From: a virus | Lineage: Duplodnaviria; Heunggongvirae; Uroviricota; Caudoviricetes | Direction: 5' to 3' (one strand) | DNA length: 18,508 nucleotides | Virus record (IMG/VR): IMGVR_UViG_2563366928_000009 | In this document: piece after piece, positions 1-8,813 of the stretch | Layout of the letters: every line of letters starts with the position of its first letter | How positions within the stretch are numbered: the first letter of the stretch is position 1 | Program-made: the position numbers and the translations under genes | The notes under the pieces: generated by a model | Told to the model about the DNA's origin: nothing | The model's database searches: none | Seen by the model: the letters and a program-made list of their open reading frames with translations, nothing else

Positions 1-1267
1 GCTTCAGAATGAAATTATATGGACGAAAAATCCCTCTATGCCCATATCCTTAACCTGACTGCACCATGGCAGGTTAAATCCCTTACCCTCGATGAAAATG
101 CAGGTTCCGTTACTGTTACAGTCGGAATTGCTGAAAATACTCAGTTAACCTGTCCGACCTGCAGGAAATCCTGTTCTGTTCACGATCACCGACATCGTAA
201 ATGGCGCCACCTTGATACCTGCCAGTTCATGACATTAGTAGAAGCCGATGTTCCCCGCGTTATGTGCCCGGAGCATGGCTGCCAGACTCTGCCTGTACCG
301 TGGGCAGGTTCCGGCAGTCGGTACACTCTGCTGTTCGAATCGTTCGTGCTCTCATGGCTTAAAATCAGCACCGTTGATGCGGTCAGAAAACAACTTAAAC
401 TTAGCTGGAATGCCGTTGACGGCATCATGACCCGCGCGGTTAAGCGAGGCCTGTCGCGGATTAAAAAGCCTTTATCAGTGCGTCATATGAATGTAGACGA
501 AGTCGCCTTTAAAAAAGGGCATAGGTATATAACCGTGGTATCTGATCGCGACGGGCGGGCACTGGCATTAACCGATGATCGTGGCACAGAGAGTCTTGCC
601 AGCTATCTCCGTTCGCTTACTGACAGTCAGTTGTTGGCCATCAAAACACTGTCGATGGACATGAATGCGGGCTATATAAGAGCAGCGCGTATCCATTTAC
701 CCAATGCGGTCGAGAAAATCGCCTTCGATCGCTTCCATGTGGCGAAGCAACTGGGCGAAGTGGTTGATAAAACCCGCCAGAATGAACATCCGCACCTCCC
801 TGTTGAAAGTCGTCGTCAGGCCAAAGGTACCCGCTTCCTGTGGCAGTACAGCGACAAATGGATGACTGAGTCCCGGCAGGAAAAGCTGATGTGGTTGCGG
901 GAACAGATGCAACAGACAAGCCAGTGCTGGACACTGAAAGAGCTGGCAAAAAATATCTGGGATCGCCCCTGGAGCACAGAACGCAGGAATGACTGGTTGC
1001 AGTGGATATCGCTGGCGTCTGAATGTGATGTGCCGATGATGAAAAACGCAGCGAAAACCATTAAAAAACGGTTATACGGAATACTGAATGCAATGCGTCA
1101 TCGCGTCTCGAATGGAAATGCGGAGGCGCTGAACAGCAAGATCAGACTGCTGAGGATAAAGGCCAGGGGATACCGAAACCGGGAACGCTTTAAACTGGGA
1201 GTTATGTTCCACTATGGGAAACTGAATATGGCGTACTGAGTCTTCCCACCATGATCGGGGAAGACCC
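1..1267 (+). mobile_element. ISL3-family insertion sequence, partial; left end lies outside the window and the right end is not resolved
   Basis: Contains the ISL3-like transposase gene at 19-1239. Only 18 bp precede the start codon, so the left inverted repeat is cut off. An 8-bp-stem inverted repeat (1240-1247 pairing with 1258-1265) follows the stop codon. No terminal inverted repeat could be identified by eye. Confidence 0.45.
19..1239 (+). CDS. ISL3-family transposase (N-terminal zinc finger plus DDE domain)
   Basis: 406-aa ORF with ATG at 19 and TGA at 1237-1239. N-terminal Cys/His cluster (CPTCRKSC...HDHRH...CPEHGC) resembles the zf-ISL3 finger. Central motifs DEVAFKKGHRYITVVSD, LSMDMNAGYI and AFDRFHVAKQLGEVVDKTRQNE match the ISL3 DDE transposase pattern as I remember it. 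Confidence 0.85.
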   Translation: MDEKSLYAHILNLTAPWQVKSLTLDENAGSVTVTVGIAENTQLTCPTCRKSCSVHDHRHRKWRHLDTCQFMTLVEADVPRVMCPEHGCQTLPVPWAGSGSRYTLLFESFVLSWLKISTVDAVRKQLKLSWNAVDGIMTRAVKRGLSRIKKPLSVRHMNVDEVAFKKGHRYITVVSDRDGRALALTDDRGTESLASYLRSLTDSQLLAIKTLSMDMNAGYIRAARIHLPNAVEKIAFDRFHVAKQLGEVVDKTRQNEHPHLPVESRRQAKGTRFLWQYSDKWMTESRQEKLMWLREQMQQTSQCWTLKELAKNIWDRPWSTERRNDWLQWISLASECDVPMMKNAAKTIKKRLYGILNAMRHRVSNGNAEALNSKIRLLRIKARGYRNRERFKLGVMFHYGKLNMAY

Positions 1268-1294
1268 ACATAACTACAGTTACAGGAGGGGGTT

Positions 1295-1543
1295 ATGCGT
1301 GTTGAGATCTGTATCGCTAAAGAAAAAATCAGCAAAATGCCGAAAGGTTCTGTTCCTGCTCTGCAGCAAGAAATGCTGCGCCGCATAGGTAAGCGATATG
1401 ACGATGCAGATGTGATCGTTAAATCTGCCAGCAATGATGGACTCACCATTTTAAGAGCCGTCGATAAAGAATCAGCACTGGAGTTCGTACAGGAAACACT
1501 ACAGGAAGTCTGGCAAACCGCGGACGACTGGTTTATGCAATAA
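1295..1543 (+). CDS. dinI: DinI-like DNA-damage-inducible protein
   Basis: 82-aa ORF with AGGAGG at 1284-1289, ATG at 1295 and TAA at 1541-1543. The sequence [11 protein letters not shown]...[12 protein letters not shown] follows the DinI family pattern (MRIEV.IAK...ETWESADDWF). Size and acidic C-terminus fit. Confidence 0.85.
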
Positions 1544-1634
1544 CGGGATCATAATCACTGTAATGACCTGTTTTGTATGACATTCTTAAAAGGCATAACA
1601 ACGAGCTTGTCGTTTCAAGCGACTTCTTCTGGTT

Positions 1635-1661
1635 GGGGAGCCTGAGTGCTCCCCTTTTTTT
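1635..1661 (+). terminator. Rho-independent terminator downstream of dinI
   Basis: GGGGAGC (1635-1641), loop CTGAGT, GCTCCCC (1648-1654), then seven T (1655-1661). On the minus strand the hairpin is not followed by a U-tract, so it is unidirectional. Confidence 0.6.
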
Positions 1662-1957
1662 CAGCTAAAAATCAGCATACAGCCATACAATCCCGCACAG
1701 GCCACCACCGGCACCACAAAATCCATCAGACTGGCCACATTCCACACACGCGGATCAAAACCGCCCCACCACGGCATGTTCTGTCTGTGACCATCACCAA
1801 AACGCTTAATCCAGCGATATTCTGCCTGGGTATGTTCTCGGGCAATAAAGAACGTACAACCCGCTATCGCTCCGTAAACCCAGTCACCGGTAATGCACCC
1901 GACCAGCCCCTGCACGGCTACTGCACAAATTGCATGAAGTATCGGCGTGATATCCAT
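1661..1957 (-). CDS. small hydrophobic protein (98 aa, two predicted transmembrane segments, possible lipobox LVGC); function unknown
   Basis: ATG at 1957 preceded by a GGGGAG Shine-Dalgarno; TGA at 1661-1663. It starts 9 nt after the stop of the upstream 92-aa gene. Hydrophobic N-terminal (ILHAICAVAVQGLVGCITGDWVYGAIAGCTFFIA) and C-terminal (LMDFVVPVVACAGLYGCMLIFS) segments. I do not recognise a family. Confidence 0.55.
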   Translation of the reverse strand: MDITPILHAICAVAVQGLVGCITGDWVYGAIAGCTFFIAREHTQAEYRWIKRFGDGHRQNMPWWGGFDPRVWNVASLMDFVVPVVACAGLYGCMLIFS

Positions 1958-1966
1958 CTGCTCCCC

Positions 1967-2245
1967 TTAAAACCACTCCCTGAGCGGGCGCTCTGGTGTA
2001 ACCACCCACTCACGGAACACGGATTCATCAAAGCCATCGTCAAGAAGACGAATATTAACAAAGTACCCTTCGTCTCGCGTGTATTCAGGCTCCCCGTCAG
2101 CAGAAACACCTGACTCACTGAACGTAAAACCAATCTCATCAACCAGAATGGCATTCTGCAGCTCTTCGTCCTCTTCCCAGTTAAGTTTCCTGAGAAATGC
2201 CCTGAAATCTGCTTTATCACTGAAACGCAACGTGAAATCTCTCAC
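1967..2245 (-). CDS. small acidic protein (92 aa) translationally coupled to the tail fiber gene; function unknown, possibly a fiber chaperone
   Basis: GTG start at 2245 overlaps the tail fiber TGA (GTGA overlap). A GGGGAGG Shine-Dalgarno lies 7 nt upstream. Open frame of 92 codons with no internal Met. Rich in Asp/Glu. Not similar to lambda Tfa by eye. Confidence 0.5.
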   Translation of the reverse strand: MRDFTLRFSDKADFRAFLRKLNWEEDEELQNAILVDEIGFTFSESGVSADGEPEYTRDEGYFVNIRLLDDGFDESVFREWVVTPERPLREWF

Positions 2246-4302
2246 TCCACAACCTCCCCAAGCTGCGCATCTGTTAGCTCTTTATGCCAGAGACGAAAAT
2301 TCCTCACATGCCCAAATAAATGGCGTAATCCTGCTGTAGTTTGTCCACCAATGCGAATGATTGCTGTACTCCGGATATATTCCCATGTGGTTTTTGTTTC
2401 GCTGGATATACGCCCGTTACTTACTGCACATGTAGACTGATCTGACTTTACACGCATCCCCATAACCATTTTTTTCAACGATGCGTTTTCGTTAACACGC
2501 CTATTTGATCCACCAATATCGCAATAAGGAAATCCGTCTGGCCCATCTGCCGAAGATCCGAAGCCAAGAATAATAGCCGCTCCGGTTTGATGACCGCCGG
2601 TATCAAAAACACGTGGCGCTGCATTTGGCGTTTTATACCAGTTCTTATGTACCTCACAAAGAACCGTAAAAGGAAGATTATAAAGATTATTCTTAATCGG
2701 AACTGTAACCATATCGCTTGCGCGCGTCGCCGCCGTCGTTCCTGATATAATAAAAGATGATACACACGAACCATCCTCAACCTGAGGGGTGGCCAGATAA
2801 ATATAGTCACCAGATTCAACGACACCACCTTTTTTTGGTGCGTATTGTATTGCAGAGGTTATGTAAGTTTCTTTACTTGCTTGAATCGTTGCCTCTACAA
2901 AAATCCAGCCCGTAGCTTCATCTTTGCTAACTCGTGCGGTGAGCCTGTCGGCAGCTACACCGGTGATTTCAACCAATAAAGACCGCGTATTAACAATGGC
3001 ATATCCAAGATTAGATGAAGCGCTGCCATCGAAGGCTTCAAACCTGATCCTTAACAGGAGTTCCAAATCCGTTTTAAATCTGCACGATGTCGTCACACAC
3101 TTATTATCGCCTGATACATCGACAGCCCCCGAGGTTGAAACTACTGCCATATTAAGGGTTGTACTTTGCCCAATTAATGATTCATTACAAACAAACTTTC
3201 CATAAGTAAAACCAAAACTATCAGTTCCAACCTCAGCGACATTCATATTTGCAGATTTACCCCAAGAAGCTGGAGTTGCTGAATTCAACATGTAGTTGGT
3301 TCGCTGACCTTCAATCAATAAACCTTCTTTTTCAAATCGTGGCTCATTAATTTCCGCCGTTTTCAGTTCGCCAGATTTGTTGATATATGTTGCCGTTGAT
3401 GCGCGACTGAAATTAACCTGTTTATCACTGGCAACCTGAACCACATTATCACCAATCTTCACTTTTTTATAACCCGGAGAATAGCCCGTAATCATATCCA
3501 GCGAATCATTAAAGGGTATCCACACATCCGGCAGCGGCTGTAAAACATATCTGTACGGCTCTGCTGTCTGGTTTGCGTATTCTCTGGCAGCATCTTCACT
3601 TGCTTTTGCTGCCGTCTGGCTTGCTGCCGATGCTTTCGCCGAGTTCGCCGCCGCTGTTTCGCTCACCTTTGCGTTGGCTTCACTGTCTTTGGCATTCGTC
3701 TCACTGGTTTTCGCTGCCGTCTGGCTGGATTTTGCGTTTTTTTCGCTGGCCTTTGTGGCTGTCTCGCTATTTTTCGCGCTGGTTTCTGATTTTTTGGCTG
3801 CTGTCGCGGAGTTTGCCGATGCAGTCTGCGAGGCCGCTGCCGCCTGTGCGCTGTTAGCTGCATTCGTTTCTGAGGTTTTCGCCGCATTCTTCGATGAGGC
3901 TGCTGCCGTTTCGGATTTCTTTGCCGCCGCTGCACTCTGTGATGACGCTCCGGCATGACGTGCCACTTCATTCACCATCAGCTCAAAACGGCGCAGTGCC
4001 TCCGGACGAACATCATCCTCCGTCATGGCGCCGAGAAAATCATTCAGCGTACCTGGTCTGGAACCTTCATAGACGGTAATGGTCCCGGCATGTGAAGGCG
4101 GAAAATCTTCAACCAGCAGGGTGACGCTGTACTGGCCATACTCAACATCCATGCTGTAACGCCCGGCTTCATCCGGATTTTCAGAGGCCACCGTGTTCAC
4201 CACCACCGTGCTGCTGGTCCGTCTGGCCTTCAGCACAATGGTGCAGTTCTGTACTGGTTTTCCTGTGCCATCTTTAAGCACGCCAGAAATTTTTACTGTC
4301 AT
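2242..4302 (-). CDS. stf: side tail fiber protein: lambda Stf-like N-terminus, Ala/Ser/Thr/Lys-rich shaft, divergent C-terminal domain
   Basis: 686-aa ORF, ATG at 4302. N-terminus MTVKISGVLKDGTGKPVQNCTIVLKARR...GRYSMDVEYGQYSV...PPSHAGTITVYE is near-identical in pattern to the lambda Stf N-terminus. The middle is low-complexity repeats (KKSETAA, KTSETNA). The C-terminal roughly 400 aa is unrelated to lambda Stf; its ending (FRLWHKELTDAQLGEVVE) is reminiscent of concanavalin/LamG-like folds, but that is memory-based. Confidence 0.9.
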   Translation of the reverse strand: MTVKISGVLKDGTGKPVQNCTIVLKARRTSSTVVVNTVASENPDEAGRYSMDVEYGQYSVTLLVEDFPPSHAGTITVYEGSRPGTLNDFLGAMTEDDVRPEALRRFELMVNEVARHAGASSQSAAAAKKSETAAASSKNAAKTSETNAANSAQAAAASQTASANSATAAKKSETSAKNSETATKASEKNAKSSQTAAKTSETNAKDSEANAKVSETAAANSAKASAASQTAAKASEDAAREYANQTAEPYRYVLQPLPDVWIPFNDSLDMITGYSPGYKKVKIGDNVVQVASDKQVNFSRASTATYINKSGELKTAEINEPRFEKEGLLIEGQRTNYMLNSATPASWGKSANMNVAEVGTDSFGFTYGKFVCNESLIGQSTTLNMAVVSTSGAVDVSGDNKCVTTSCRFKTDLELLLRIRFEAFDGSASSNLGYAIVNTRSLLVEITGVAADRLTARVSKDEATGWIFVEATIQASKETYITSAIQYAPKKGGVVESGDYIYLATPQVEDGSCVSSFIISGTTAATRASDMVTVPIKNNLYNLPFTVLCEVHKNWYKTPNAAPRVFDTGGHQTGAAIILGFGSSADGPDGFPYCDIGGSNRRVNENASLKKMVMGMRVKSDQSTCAVSNGRISSETKTTWEYIRSTAIIRIGGQTTAGLRHLFGHVRNFRLWHKELTDAQLGEVVE
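3590..3960. repeat. imperfect short tandem repeats inside the tail fiber gene (encode the Ala/Ser/Thr/Lys-rich shaft)
   Basis: Recurring GCTGCC/GTTTCG/TTTGC-type units on the plus strand, corresponding to repeated K-[ST]-SET-xA peptide motifs. Confidence 0.5.
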
Positions 4303-4313
4303 ACTTTTCCACC

Positions 4314-4348
4314 AATAAAAAAAGCCCGCAGCAGTGACGCCACGGGCT
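4314..4348 (-). terminator. terminator-like hairpin plus U-tract between lom and the tail fiber gene
   Basis: On the minus strand: AGCCCG, 14-nt loop, CGGGCT, then TTTTTTTATT, followed directly by the tail fiber RBS (GGTGGA) and ATG. Stem is only 6 bp. Confidence 0.5.
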
Positions 4349-4453
4349 TCAGGACAGTGTAACTTTACGTTTCCTCAAACGCAGTTCACCCCATAAGGCG
4401 GATGAACCTGCGTATCATAACAATATTTACAGAAGATAAATCGGCGTCTGTTG

Positions 4454-5053
4454 TCAGAAACGGTATCCGATACCAACAATAAATGCATCCGTTCGCCAGT
4501 CGCCACTACCGGAACCTTCATAAGCAAGGTCAATGGCCACGGATTCGGTCGGGTTAAACTGCACGCCAGCCCCCCACGCCAGAGAGGTATTGCTGTGGCG
4601 ACCGTCATCACTTCCGGTCAGCACGTCGTGCTTTTTCCCCTTGTTGTCAGTTACGCGGAGATAATCCCCGGAGAAAGTCGACACACGGCTGTAAGCCACA
4701 CCCGCCATCGCATACGCGCTGAACCATTCATTCACGCGCACAGACGGCCCCGCCATTACGCTGAACCAGCGGTTACGCACGGAATCTTCATGCCAGCGGG
4801 TATCGCTGTAGTGCGTTTTTTGCTCATCCTCAGCATTGGCATAACTGAAGGACGTAATCAGCCCCAGCGCGTCCGTAAACTCATAACGGTATTTCACGTT
4901 AATCCCGTTCAGATTATCGCTGCCGGGAGCGTTCGTACGGGCATGAAGATACCCTGCGCTCAGTGTGGACTGATGTTCAGACGCCCATGCAGGCGCACTG
5001 GATACGGACAGACAGATGGCTGCGGACAAAATGGCTGCACAAACTTTACGCAT
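4454..5053 (-). CDS. lom: Lom outer membrane protein (Ail/Lom/PagC family beta-barrel)
   Basis: 199-aa ORF with ATG at 5053 and a GAGAGG RBS. Signal peptide MRKVCAAILSAAICLSVSSAPAWA. C-terminus AIDLAYEGSGSGDWRTDAFIVGIGYRF closely matches lambda Lom (VVDIAYEGSGSGDWRTDGFIVGVGYKF). Confidence 0.92.
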   Translation of the reverse strand: MRKVCAAILSAAICLSVSSAPAWASEHQSTLSAGYLHARTNAPGSDNLNGINVKYRYEFTDALGLITSFSYANAEDEQKTHYSDTRWHEDSVRNRWFSVMAGPSVRVNEWFSAYAMAGVAYSRVSTFSGDYLRVTDNKGKKHDVLTGSDDGRHSNTSLAWGAGVQFNPTESVAIDLAYEGSGSGDWRTDAFIVGIGYRF

Positions 5054-5074
5054 AATTACCTCTCGCTTTTCTGC

Positions 5075-5101
5075 AATAAAAAAGGCGCCATTTCTGGCGC
5101 C
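5075..5101 (-). terminator. Rho-independent terminator between J and lom
   Basis: On the minus strand: GGCGCC, loop AGAAAT, GGCGCC, then TTTTTTATT. It sits 20 nt after the J stop, immediately before the lom RBS. Confidence 0.6.
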
Positions 5102-5120
5102 CGTATTGGGGTTATAAAAT

Positions 5121-8100
5121 TCAGCTAATCGTGATGCCTGCAGTGGCTTTCTTCATCACAACAACCAGCAAATCGCTGATACTTGCTGTGGGATACCAGC
5201 CATTTACCCACCATGCTGATACAGAAAACTCCAGCGTCATGTGGCCGCGACCAGCAGGCATATCAATAACACCACTGTAAACCAGCGTATTATCCAGCGC
5301 GGTACGGTTATAAATTTCAGCACCGTTTTTCCGTACTATCAGGCGGCATGACGAATAAATATCGTTATTCTCCCGCTCATGTCTGGCACCGCTGAATGCC
5401 ACCGCCGGAATAACAATTTGCCGGTCAAACGGCTGATCGTCATAAACCCTGACGGTAATGGTCCCTGATGGCCACCTCTCCGGTGCACGGGAGTCACGGG
5501 GGAAAGCCTTACCCACTGTTTTAACGAGATCGCCTTCAATCTGGTTTGCAGACAGTTTCCCTCTGATGACACAGTTCTCGTTAATGGTGACATTATTGAG
5601 CGTGCCGGTATTCGCCGTGATGGCTCCACTGATATCCGCATTGCGGGCTGCCAGCCTGCCATCCGGCGTCAGGGAAAACGTAGGAGGATTGCCGGATGAC
5701 GTGATGCTCACCGCAAACAGTCGCTTCAGGAACACGTCGTTCATGAACAGCTGATTCCCCTGCGCCACAAACAGCGGCGTGGTGTTGCCATTCTCCGGGG
5801 TAATCATCGCGATACGGTCCGCCTGCAGCAGAATACTGCTCAGCGTCTGACCATCAACATCCTCAATCCCCGCACCAATCCCGGCCACATAGGGAATACC
5901 GTTTTTTGTTTTCTGCACCTTCAGCATATACATGGCATTCAGCTCATTGCGCGTGTCTGACTGAACCCGCTGGATTTGCTGTATGGTCACGGCCTGGTCA
6001 CCCAGTTTTTTATCCGTGGTCGAGGTAATTTCACTCCCTTTTTTATCCACGTACTGGCGGACCTGTGCTATCTGTCGGGCATTTTCTGACTGCCCCTGGC
6101 TGACAGTCTGTGAGATTTCACTGCTCACCCGGTCCACTTTCTGGCTCACCTGCGCGATGGCCAGTGTCTGGTCCTCATTCTTTTTCGCAACCAGCTGCGT
6201 GAGGCTGTTTTCCGCCTCCCCGATTTTCCGGGTCACTTCTGCGATATCCGTGTCCATCCGCTGACGGATGTCTTCTTCCAGTTGCGTGACCTCCGTACGC
6301 AGCGCTGAAGCATCAATGCGCTCTTTCAGTGCCTGGCCCAGAAGCGTCTCATCTATCAGACCACGGAAAAATTCCAGATACCCTTTTGCATCATTGCTGG
6401 CCTGCCCGCTGGCTTCCACAAATGCAGACTTGCCCACCAGGTTGACACTGCGCACATAAAACCAGAAATCCGTCCCCGGCTTAATCCGATCGCCCTGGAC
6501 AGTCCACTGACTGCCGGTCCCCAGATAACGGGCAGATTTTTCCACCTGTGCCGTGTTCGTGATGCGTTTTTCCGAAAACCAGAACTCAAACTGCACCGTC
6601 GGGTCATACACCGCCAGCACCGGTACCGCCGTTATCTGAAAATACCCCGGCGTCAGCTCAATGGTGGCGGGTTTTGCAGGCGCGTTAATCCGGAAGGTGG
6701 TGGTCGCAGGTTCGCCCTGCTGGCCGTAGCTGTTAATGGCCCGCACCGTCAGGGTGTATTCCCCCAGCGGCAGACCACTGAAACGGTGCTCCGTGTCTGC
6801 GGTGATGGCGGTGCTCACCAGACGGCTGTCTTCTCCGCTTCCGCTGGTCAGACGCAGACTGAAGCGCACACCCTTCACCACCCGCGGCGTGTCCCATTTC
6901 GCCTGTGCCAGATACTGACCGTCAGCTGCACTCACCTCCACCGTCAGGTGCTGCACTGCCGGTGGGATAACGCTGTTCAGGCTGCCTGACTGCGGCTCAA
7001 AGCTGGCCCCGTTATCCACAATGGCTTCTTTTTCCGGTACGTGCTGCACCGCCGTGATGGCGAACGTGCCGTCCGTGTTTTCCCGGATGGAGACACAGCG
7101 GAACAGGCGACGACGCAGTGACGGCAGGGAGAGTCCCCACACCCCGTATGTCTCCACACCATCCGGCAGGGTGCTGACCTGTATCCGGTCAGGCGCGGGG
7201 TGTGCGGTGATGGCCACGCTCGCCGGCTTACCGCTGCCGTTAATCAGATTAACAGTGGCCGTGCCGGTCTCCGGCAGTGTCACCTCCCGGTCCAGCGTCA
7301 GGGTACGGCTGGCGGCATCGATGGACAGGACACGTCCGCCGGTCATGGTCCCGGCATAGTCGTTATCACAGATTTCAATGATGTCACCGGGTGTGTGACG
7401 CAGCCCCTGTGACCCAAGCGTGAAATCCACCGTCTGCGTTTCCAGCAGTTCGGTCTTTATCACCCACAGCCCGGCACGGTGGGCCTGACCGCGGCTGGTA
7501 CAGCCGAACGCGTCCATCTTCAGCAGGTTGCATCCGTAGCGCAGTATGGCTTCCGGGTCTTCCACCAGTTCCGTGGAGGTCTGCCAGCCGTTCTGCGGGT
7601 CGGTGTAATTCACCTCCACTGCCGTGTGCCGGTCCTTCAGGGCACTGAAGCTGTAGCGGAAACCCACGCCGTTATCATCCACCACCACATCGCTGTTGGT
7701 GTACGGCCACACCACATCCGACGGGCGGTCCTGAACGAACGTCAGCGTCTGACCGTTCCATACCGGCATACAGCGCATCGCAGAGCAGAAATCACTGAGA
7801 ACGTCCCACGCCTTACGCTGTTGTGCCAGGTACGCATAAAAGGTCATCCGCGGCTCGGTCCCCCCGAAACCATCCGGGACCGTCTGGTCGCAGTACTGCC
7901 CGATGGCATACAGCGCCCACTTGTCCACATCCGCCGCCCCCAGACGTTTTCCCATGCCGTAGCGCGGGTGAGTCAGCATGTCCCACAGACACCAGGCCGG
8001 GTTGTTGCTGTATGCCGGTTTCAGGCTGCCGTCCCAGATACCACTGTACGTGCGTTTTTCCGGGTCATAGTTTGACGGCACCTGGATGATGCGACCGCGG

Positions 8101-8813
8101 ATATGGTAGTTCACCGTCATCTGCTGGCCGCCGAACTGCTCCGCATCCACCTGCAGCCCCACAATGGCCGTGTTCGGGTAGCACTGTTTCACATCGATGA
8201 TTTCGGTGTATGACGACCACAGCGTCTTATTCTGCAGCTGGTCCGTGGTGCTGTCCGCCGTCTCCCTGACCATCCGGATGTTAAAGGGCCGGGGAGGCAG
8301 ATTATCCAGAATCACCGAGGCCAGGAACTGCGAGGTGGTCTTGCCGTTAATGGTGACATCCTTTTCCGTCACCCAGCGGCCATTACGCTGTAACTGAATC
8401 AGAATCCGGACAGAGGAAGGATTACGGTCGCCCTTTGACGTGGTCTGCACCAGTGACTGCACCCCGAAGGTAACCCGCAGGCGGTCAATGTTCGCGGACG
8501 TAATGGTGCGCGTCACCGGTTTTGCCTTCGTCACTTCCACGCCCAGTCCGGTTTCAGCTCCGGAGGACTCAAAGCCTTCCGGTGGTGTCTGCTCCTGCTC
8601 CCCGGCACGCCAGACCGCGGTCACACCGTGTATCACGGGATTACCGTCCGTGTCCGTCAGCGGGGTTTTGTTCACCAGGATACTCTGCAGTCCCTTCACC
8701 GGACCTTCTATCGGTCCCTCACCAATCGCATCAATCACACTCATCATCTGCGTGGATTTGAGATTATCCTTCGCCTCACGAGGCGTGTGTGCCTTACCGC
8801 CACCTTTTCCCAT
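5121..8813 (-). CDS. J: tail tip host-specificity protein J (central tail fiber)
   Basis: 1230-aa ORF, ATG at 8813 with a GGGGAAGG RBS. Long stretches are near-identical to lambda J ([22 protein letters not shown]..., [50 protein letters not shown]). It has a longer coiled-coil segment than lambda J and a diverged C-terminal receptor-binding region. Confidence 0.95.

Follow-up and report, generated by a model that had tools for sequence, protein, structure and literature searches.

Two small genes behind the side tail fiber gene of a lambdoid prophage: a likely fiber accessory protein and a separate membrane protein of temperate phages

Background

What are the two small genes that stand where lambda has tfa, directly behind the side tail fiber gene of a lambdoid prophage, and do they serve the fiber? 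The locus lies in IMG/VR record IMGVR_UViG_2563366928_000009, a Caudoviricetes sequence of 18,508 nucleotides (nt; the window), which is the right-hand end of such a prophage read on the minus strand. The first gene, orfA, specifies an acidic, soluble protein of 92 amino acids (aa), and the second, orfB, a membrane protein of 98 aa. A preliminary description, made from the letters of the window alone, had offered two ideas: a non-canonical fiber chaperone plus a membrane factor, or a moron. On balance, and with confidence only a little better than even, we read the pair as two independent modules, OrfA being a partner of the fiber and OrfB a separate membrane protein of host interaction.

Reading frames and conservation

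The coordinates and signals given in the preliminary description were confirmed from the sequence, and all lie on the minus strand, which it had left unstated. The GTG start codon of orfA (nucleotides 2245–2243) overlaps the TGA stop codon of the fiber gene (2244–2242) as GTGA, and a GGGGAGG Shine-Dalgarno sequence is found 7 nt upstream of the start, at 2259–2253. The gene ends in TAA, which is followed by a 9-nt spacer, GGGGAGCAG (1966–1958), and the ATG of orfB.

Neither open reading frame (ORF) is spurious. OrfA, with an isoelectric point of 4.25 and 23 D+E versus 11 K+R, matches phrog_1361 from end to end (E-value=2.7e-39; residues 1–92 on profile positions 1–92 of 92), while OrfB matches phrog_1443 (E-value=1.9e-48; residues 1–91 on positions 1–91 of 97); both are families of unknown function. 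OrfA homologs with as little as 30% identity can be aligned from their first residue, showing that the GTG start is correct, and have in common M1, D3, L6, F8, D36, G39, G60, V63-N64, R66 and a C-terminal P.R.W. The ratios of nonsynonymous to synonymous substitution (dN/dS) of 0.17–0.41 for orfA and 0.13–0.19 for orfB indicate that both genes are under purifying selection. Between the window-type orfA and that of phage 21 the synonymous sites are saturated and the core residues kept.

As had been judged by eye, neither protein resembles Tfa. A Pfam scan up to E=1 gave three chance-level matches for OrfA and neither Caudo_TAP nor any other chaperone family; the NCBIfam scan gave no match for OrfA, and the PADLOC models up to E=1 none for OrfA or OrfB. 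No significant family was thus found for either protein in Pfam, NCBIfam or PADLOC, and the earlier description of both as uncharacterised holds, their only significant family matches being to PHROGs of unknown function. The AlphaFold2 model of OrfA (pLDDT 92.9) is a small alpha/beta domain for which no confident structural relative was found. Profile searches of PDB sequences for the two small proteins returned chance-level matches only (telomerase p19, E-value=0.0085; RUS1, E-value=0.15). An exhaustive search of representative sequences with OrfA produced 53 matches, the very long ones of which (PKD-repeat proteins) are compositional or irrelevant. Homologs of the two proteins are named "hypothetical" or "prophage protein" in the sources checked, and no mention of either was found in the literature on lambdoid stf/tfa, BASEL, DT57C, the lambda stf-chimera, RBPseg or the PHROG/FIG identifiers.

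orfA and the distal module of the fiber

Loci containing orfA were sought with single-protein queries, the OrfA alignment being too divergent for use as a query. A tblastn search placed OrfA in 187 phage records, and the 150 C-terminal aa of the fiber gave 205 records that divide among organism names in the same way; both sets include many virulent phages. From phage records and IMG/VR, 162 loci with an orfA reading frame were examined. The start of orfA overlaps the stop of a long upstream ORF in 144 of them (98 with an overlap of 4 nt, 46 with one of 1 nt), and in nearly all the orfA loci the end of that ORF is 40–100% identical to the 425-aa distal module of the window's fiber, here called fibC. 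Exceptions to the pairing are fp01, which retains only a partial fibC match, and phage D2, with an insertion sequence between the two. In D2 (locus L056, 1933–4055) three genes for a "mobile element protein" part the side tail fiber gene from orfA and break the stop/start coupling.

Wherever annotated loci were inspected, the gene immediately ahead of orfA is that of a lateral or side tail fiber. These examples comprise orkinos (Drexlerviridae), IrisVonRoten and L6jm (T5-like), KarlBarth (Dhillonvirus), VogelGryff (Seuratvirus), JeffSchatz and EmilHeitz (rV5-like), and the lambdoid phages 21, Lambda_2G7a and HannyBb. The 9-nt spacing after orfA recurs in most loci, whichever gene comes next. 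The conserved stop/start overlap with the fiber gene makes an accessory role in the fiber the best reading of OrfA.

The fiber itself consists of a Stf-type N-terminal attachment domain (Pfam phage_tail_N on residues 1–131, E-value=1.3e-67), an Ala/Ser/Lys-rich shaft and a lectin-like distal module. It also matches phrog_1419, "tail protein", and NCBIfam GTA_spike_fiber (residues 329–528). The distal module, fibC, is a mosaic: its scaffold is conserved, its central segments are hypervariable, and it closes with the conserved motif RIGGQT..G.RHLFGH.RNFR.WHK.LTD.Q. Residues 37–282 of fibC match the head spike fiber of RcGTA (Rcc01080, PDB accession 6tb9; E-value=3.4e-6), and a distant homolog in Chelativorans carries Pfam Laminin_G_3, a concanavalin/LamG-type lectin domain.

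A module swap between two rV5-like phages is the strongest argument for OrfA as a fiber accessory protein. The large fibers of MaxBurger and EmilHeitz share 88% identity across 1049 aa, and the genes downstream are ~98% identical. Past residue ~1049 the MaxBurger fiber has a tip ending in a Peptidase_S74 (S74) intramolecular chaperone, and there is no orfA; the EmilHeitz fiber has a lectin-like module instead, and a separate orfA follows, its start codon overlapping that of the fiber stop. What is exchanged is thus the lectin module together with orfA, replacing a self-chaperoning fiber end, which is suggestive of a chaperone-like role. In the RBPseg atlas, the RBP_10 of which may be the fiber compared here, the MaxBurger/EmilHeitz pair differs by an S74 domain versus a "lectin-like head"; its low-resolution virion maps come with no mention of a small partner (PMC12143355).

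We therefore favour, for OrfA, the role of a dedicated partner of the lectin-headed distal module, made by translational coupling with the fiber. It would bind the conserved fibC scaffold in the cytoplasm and help it to fold or trimerise, acting in trans as Peptidase_S74 does in cis, and/or it would remain part of the fiber, as a small piece at its distal end. To judge from these sequence comparisons, OrfA likely represents a tail fiber accessory protein of a new family, one that goes with lectin-headed fibers in at least six phage lineages.

The second fiber protein

The orfA loci differ in layout. The window, phage 21 and their relatives have fiber–orfA–orfB. The more numerous lambdoid prophages (219 versus 46 IMG/VR matches) have fiber–orfA–X–orfB, with orfB 700–1080 nt beyond orfA, and most of the virulent phages examined (five of seven loci) have fiber–orfA–X. 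X is a second fiber protein of 234–709 aa when encoded by a single gene; in orkinos and KarlBarth two short ORFs take its place. A C-terminal Peptidase_S74 domain is present in X at five of six loci checked, and the N-terminal motif M.T.T.IP.DI..LK is kept in lambdoid, T5-like, T1-like, Dhillonvirus and Seuratvirus loci. From the motif shared across phage groups and the S74 end, X is probably a portable "branch fiber" module.

The types of OrfA split according to X. Where OrfA is at least 60% identical to that of the window, orfB comes next and X is lacking (all 50 loci); where the identity is 39–51%, X comes next (all 77 loci, from five phage groups). Among the X loci the divergence of OrfA follows that of the first 40 aa of X (r=0.68) more closely than that of the last 40 aa of the fiber (r=0.40), although shared ancestry confounds the comparison and linkage could give the same pattern.

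These patterns could mean that OrfA is mainly a structural adaptor, a socket at the fiber tip for the N-terminus of X in a branched fiber, the X-less form in the window being a reduced derivative. The clean split of types and the correlation with X both fit such a role. X moreover has an S74 chaperone of its own and so would not need OrfA in order to fold, and branched lateral fibers are documented in the T5-like phage DT57C (PMC4728585). DT57C, however, branches without any orfA, the correlation may be mere linkage, and orfA persists under constraint in three settings that lack X (the window type, the phage 21 type and EmilHeitz). A mainly structural role is accordingly possible but doubtful. 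Since OrfA is kept where X is lacking, and linkage may account for the correlation, "chaperone" and "docking piece" are treated here as two versions of the fiber accessory that we prefer; in the branched loci, which are the commoner, a distal OrfA piece would be the docking place of X.

orfB and its neighbors

OrfB had been credited with two hydrophobic segments and a possible lipobox, LVGC, neither of which survived. The AlphaFold model (pLDDT 90.2) shows three helices instead, at residues 4–23, 26–52 and 74–97, and the segment with LVGC is modelled as a transmembrane helix. Of the 31 homologs aligned, 30 have another residue, usually L or I, in place of Cys21, the cysteine of the supposed lipobox, so that the lipobox is no feature of the family and the lipoprotein idea was rejected; invariance is complete at Cys34 and Cys87 and nearly so at Gly20. 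The UniRef label "prolipoprotein diacylglyceryl transferase" on a 102-aa homolog from Aeromonas was judged a mis-annotation.

OrfB is an uncharacterised membrane protein, widespread among temperate phages. Its cluster-level homologs number more than 538, and the family ranges over Enterobacteriaceae, Aeromonas, Comamonas, Acidovorax, sphingomonads, Halomonas and Desulfovibrio. Invariant residues are H8, Q16, G24, G29, C34, R40-E41 and T43-I50 in the N-terminal half, and G56, R58, P62, W64-F67, W72, P83 and C87 in the rest, giving the motif REHTQAEYRWI...G.R...PWWGGF...W. Among the 74 records of the phage database in which it occurs, nearly all full-length matches are in temperate-type phages, and it was not found in any of the seven virulent orfA loci examined.

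Its neighbors are genes of quite different receptor-binding proteins (RBPs), which it follows in temperate siphoviruses, podoviruses and myoviruses of Proteobacteria. In the P22-like phage Gally, orfB lies between the tailspike gene and int, after the tailspike terminator and a weak promoter-like site. In the epsilon15-like phiv142-3 it follows a fiber gene and is itself just upstream of the lysis genes; in the P2-like Halomonas phage phiHAP-1 it overlaps the tail fiber assembly gene and sits between that gene and the sheath gene. In Desulfovibrio it comes after a pectate-lyase/S74 tailspike, in Chelativorans after the LamG fiber, and in Comamonas between a fiber gene, in the target position of a diversity-generating retroelement (DGR), and the DGR gene Avd. 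OrfB is thus indifferent to RBP type and largely confined to temperate phages, which points to a generic host-interaction role. In Comamonas nitrativorans (L195) and Pigmentiphaga humi (L197) the gene follows an unannotated ORF of ~370–383 aa in the position of a DGR target gene; the gene after orfB in the former is the DGR accessory gene avd (Pfam bAvd), and orfB would there be inside the DGR cassette.

The three helices of OrfB, as in class I holins, and a weak match to Pfam Phage_holin_8 (E-value=0.003, 18.1 bits) raise the question whether it acts in lysis, as a holin, an antiholin or a small membrane protein of pinholin-like kind, and so does the place of the gene in phiv142-3, together with an endolysin gene downstream of a few distant homologs. 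The Pfam score is, however, below the gathering cut-off of 26.4, and OrfB has no charged C-terminal tail. Its very high conservation (32 homologs aligned at 53–98% identity, with matches from alpha- to deltaproteobacteria) is unlike that of holins. The genes downstream are heterogeneous (integrase, Avd, sheath, GGDEF), and in the window the neighbors of orfB are orfA and a convergent DinI-like gene, with no lysis gene adjacent. A function in lysis is therefore improbable.

We prefer to see OrfB as an inner-membrane protein without a role in fiber assembly, which would act on a conserved component of the host envelope or membrane. Judged from position alone, it would most likely protect the lysogen or infected cell from further phage attack, by exclusion of the incoming phage, or alter the cell surface by modification of the envelope.

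Independence of the two genes

Could the two genes nevertheless form one cassette, a cytoplasmic chaperone and a membrane factor both working for the fiber, as first proposed? They are 9 nt apart in the window and adjacent in phage 21 and other lambdoid phages. The distribution largely refutes the idea, which we now consider very improbable: orfA stands without orfB in seven of seven virulent loci, orfB without orfA behind unrelated RBPs, and about five times as many of the IMG/VR loci counted above have the orfA type that is parted from orfB by X. By this distribution the two do not make up a single functional cassette, and of that proposal the fiber accessory role of OrfA remains as the best reading. 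In the same way, travel with the C-terminal domain of the fiber, a pattern which the preliminary description had raised for both genes, is seen for orfA in nearly all loci and fails for orfB. OrfB behaves more like a host-interaction "rider" than a fiber factor. For OrfA, a host-interaction or anti-defence role of the moron type, independent of the fiber (as an acidic mimic or an immunity-like protein, for example), is very improbable: at the loci examined orfA was never seen apart from a fibC-type fiber gene, virulent phages retain it, it is exchanged together with the fiber tip, and it has no PADLOC match.

Several observations weigh against the two-module reading. For OrfA, the closer agreement of its divergence with the N-terminus of X than with the fiber end, though confounded by shared ancestry, favours docking over a pure chaperone, and its identity does not follow that of fibC: VogelGryff shows 83% identity to the window in fibC and 44% in OrfA. 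In a Comamonas prophage the fiber gene, a weakly OrfA-like ORF and orfB all overlap by 4 nt (Comamonas kerstersii, locus L172; the 95-aa ORF at 5714–6001, E-value=6e-4), which indicates that the two genes can be tightly packed together. Partial OrfB-like matches occur in a few large phage genomes (156–237 kb) that do not look temperate, and some alphaproteobacterial homologs stand in plain chromosomal contexts, after ligA or pnp (L217, L218, L230); by these sequence contexts the family may have cellular members. No promoter-like (sigma-70-like) site for orfB was found on the minus strand of 1200–4600, and with a terminator-like hairpin ahead of the fiber gene the expression of orfB from the prophage is unproven. 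Finally, the analysis establishes that the genes are real and conserved, together with the coupling, the patterns of co-occurrence and the module swap; every biochemical role proposed here for the two proteins is one that we infer.

Comparison with known systems

By function, OrfA would be closest to three kinds of protein: trans-acting fiber chaperones, tip proteins of the gp38 type and the cis-acting S74 domain. With the Tfa, P2 gpG and Mu gpU proteins (Caudo_TAP) it shares a small gene placed right after the fiber gene and co-expressed with it, orfA occupying the very place of lambda tfa. It differs from them in lacking a sequence match, in its alpha/beta fold, in being paired with a lectin-like distal module and in that its chaperone function is putative. 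Peptidase_S74, as in the K1F endosialidase and T5 pb1, fills an equivalent slot, and in rV5-like phages the S74 end and the lectin-plus-orfA end are interchangeable alleles; S74, however, belongs to the fiber chain itself and is released by self-cleavage, whereas OrfA is a separate protein of no homology to it. The gp38 proteins of T-even phages, a chaperone in T4 and the tip adhesin in T2 and S16, are likewise small proteins encoded after the distal fiber gene which may aid folding or stay at the tip, but they are not homologous to OrfA. OrfA is, moreover, more conserved than the hypervariable parts of its fiber, which argues against an adhesin that determines specificity. The LtfA/LtfB fibers of DT57C are comparable in that many orfA loci encode the S74-bearing X right after orfA, suggesting a two-protein fiber; they differ in that DT57C lacks orfA and both its fibers carry S74 (PMC4728585). 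The window, for its part, has no X.

The position of orfB also has precedents. Prophage genes found behind receptor-binding genes include Cor of phi80 and N15, Z/fun of P2, gtrABC of P22, gp15 of HK97 and the O-antigen conversion genes of epsilon15 and D3. Like these, orfB occupies slots in P22-like and P2-like phages and at the end of the lambdoid late operon; unlike them, it is linked to the group by no homology and is not a lipoprotein. Its conservation whatever the RBP type, and across classes of Proteobacteria, makes it unlikely to mask one specific receptor.

The two-gene finding fits the known logic of fiber loci and is of use in annotating and engineering phages. Many coliphages (T5-like, T1-like, rV5-like and lambdoid), model and therapeutic phages among them, have side or lateral fibers with a lectin tip. 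Should the building or extension of such fibers depend on OrfA, host-range engineering by fiber swaps must move orfA with the tip module, of which the EmilHeitz/MaxBurger exchange is a natural instance. Treating the pair as a partner of the fiber and a membrane protein that trails RBP genes yields two concrete annotations for "hypothetical" proteins, and the polar motif of OrfB, nearly invariant in several proteobacterial classes, points to a host target that is itself conserved. A broader claim can be put forward only tentatively: that OrfA represents an unrecognised class of trans-acting accessory for lectin-headed fibers, both replacing S74 and serving as a hub for the branch fiber, and that OrfB is a universal RBP-linked membrane protein of temperate Proteobacteria phages with a new mechanism of exclusion or surface remodelling, directed at a conserved envelope component.

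Organization of the locus

On the minus strand of the window the order is tail genes, J, lom, a terminator-like hairpin, the side tail fiber gene, orfA and orfB (Table 1). An Rfam scan of nucleotides 1–5200 found no RNA element.

Table 1. Features of the fiber–orfA–orfB locus in the window, and genes for protein X at other loci (positions in the latter refer to those loci)
Feature	Coordinates	Strand	Remarks
J	5121–8813	minus
lom	4454–5053	minus
Terminator-like hairpin between lom and the fiber gene	4321–4350	minus	Strong; 13-bp stem and T-run
Side tail fiber gene, 686 aa	2242–4302	minus	Pfam, PHROG and NCBIfam matches
fibC, distal module of the fiber (residues 262–686)	2245–3519	minus	Identity to gene ends upstream of orfA
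Shine-Dalgarno sequence of orfA, GGGGAGG	2253–2259	minus	Inside the end of the fiber gene; read from sequence
orfA, 92-aa acidic soluble protein	1967–2245	minus	phrog_1361; candidate fiber accessory protein
9-nt spacer GGGGAGCAG with Shine-Dalgarno sequence of orfB	1958–1966	minus	Read from sequence
orfB, 98-aa three-helix membrane protein	1661–1957	minus	phrog_1443
GC-rich hairpin directly after orfB	1635–1654		Strand not assigned
DinI-like gene	1295–1543	plus	Convergent to orfB
ISL3-family transposase ORF, 406 aa	19–1239	plus	Intact; adjoins the DinI-like gene at the prophage end
X gene, locus L053	4792–5823
X gene, locus L050	4789–6513
X gene, locus L054	2037–3203
X gene, locus L059	5292–5996

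Two hairpins bear on transcription. The one directly after orfB is followed by a T-run on the plus strand, and the minus-strand transcript has only an A-run before it, which makes it the terminator of the convergent DinI-like gene. The other, ahead of the fiber gene, means that transcription of fiber, orfA and orfB from upstream would need read-through by anti-termination; the annotation of phage 21 has a terminator at the corresponding point.

A 701-bp stretch (1600–2300) recurs at 100% identity in a prophage of E. coli IAI39 and in VR50. It is matched in 1763 of 5426 complete E. coli genomes, and the matches in this roughly one-third of the genomes mostly cover the orfB part. The IAI39 copy adjoins btsS, and both small genes are annotated as hypothetical there. 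The ISL3-type transposase of the window is missing from that otherwise identical locus, where btsS comes next.

Other lambdoid phages carry other genes at this point: in phage 21 (L002) and Lambda_2G7a (L055) the late region ends with a large cargo insertion, the sitABCD operon for an iron/manganese transporter, which runs convergently to orfB. The Comamonas kerstersii locus is a betaproteobacterial version of the fiber–orfA–orfB layout. Lastly, regions of the "Campylobacter phage" records MG0656xx (C11–C15, A116 and others), labelled as phages of Campylobacter jejuni, are 99–100% identical to rV5-like and T5-like phages of E. coli, and by this identity the records look mislabelled or contaminated.

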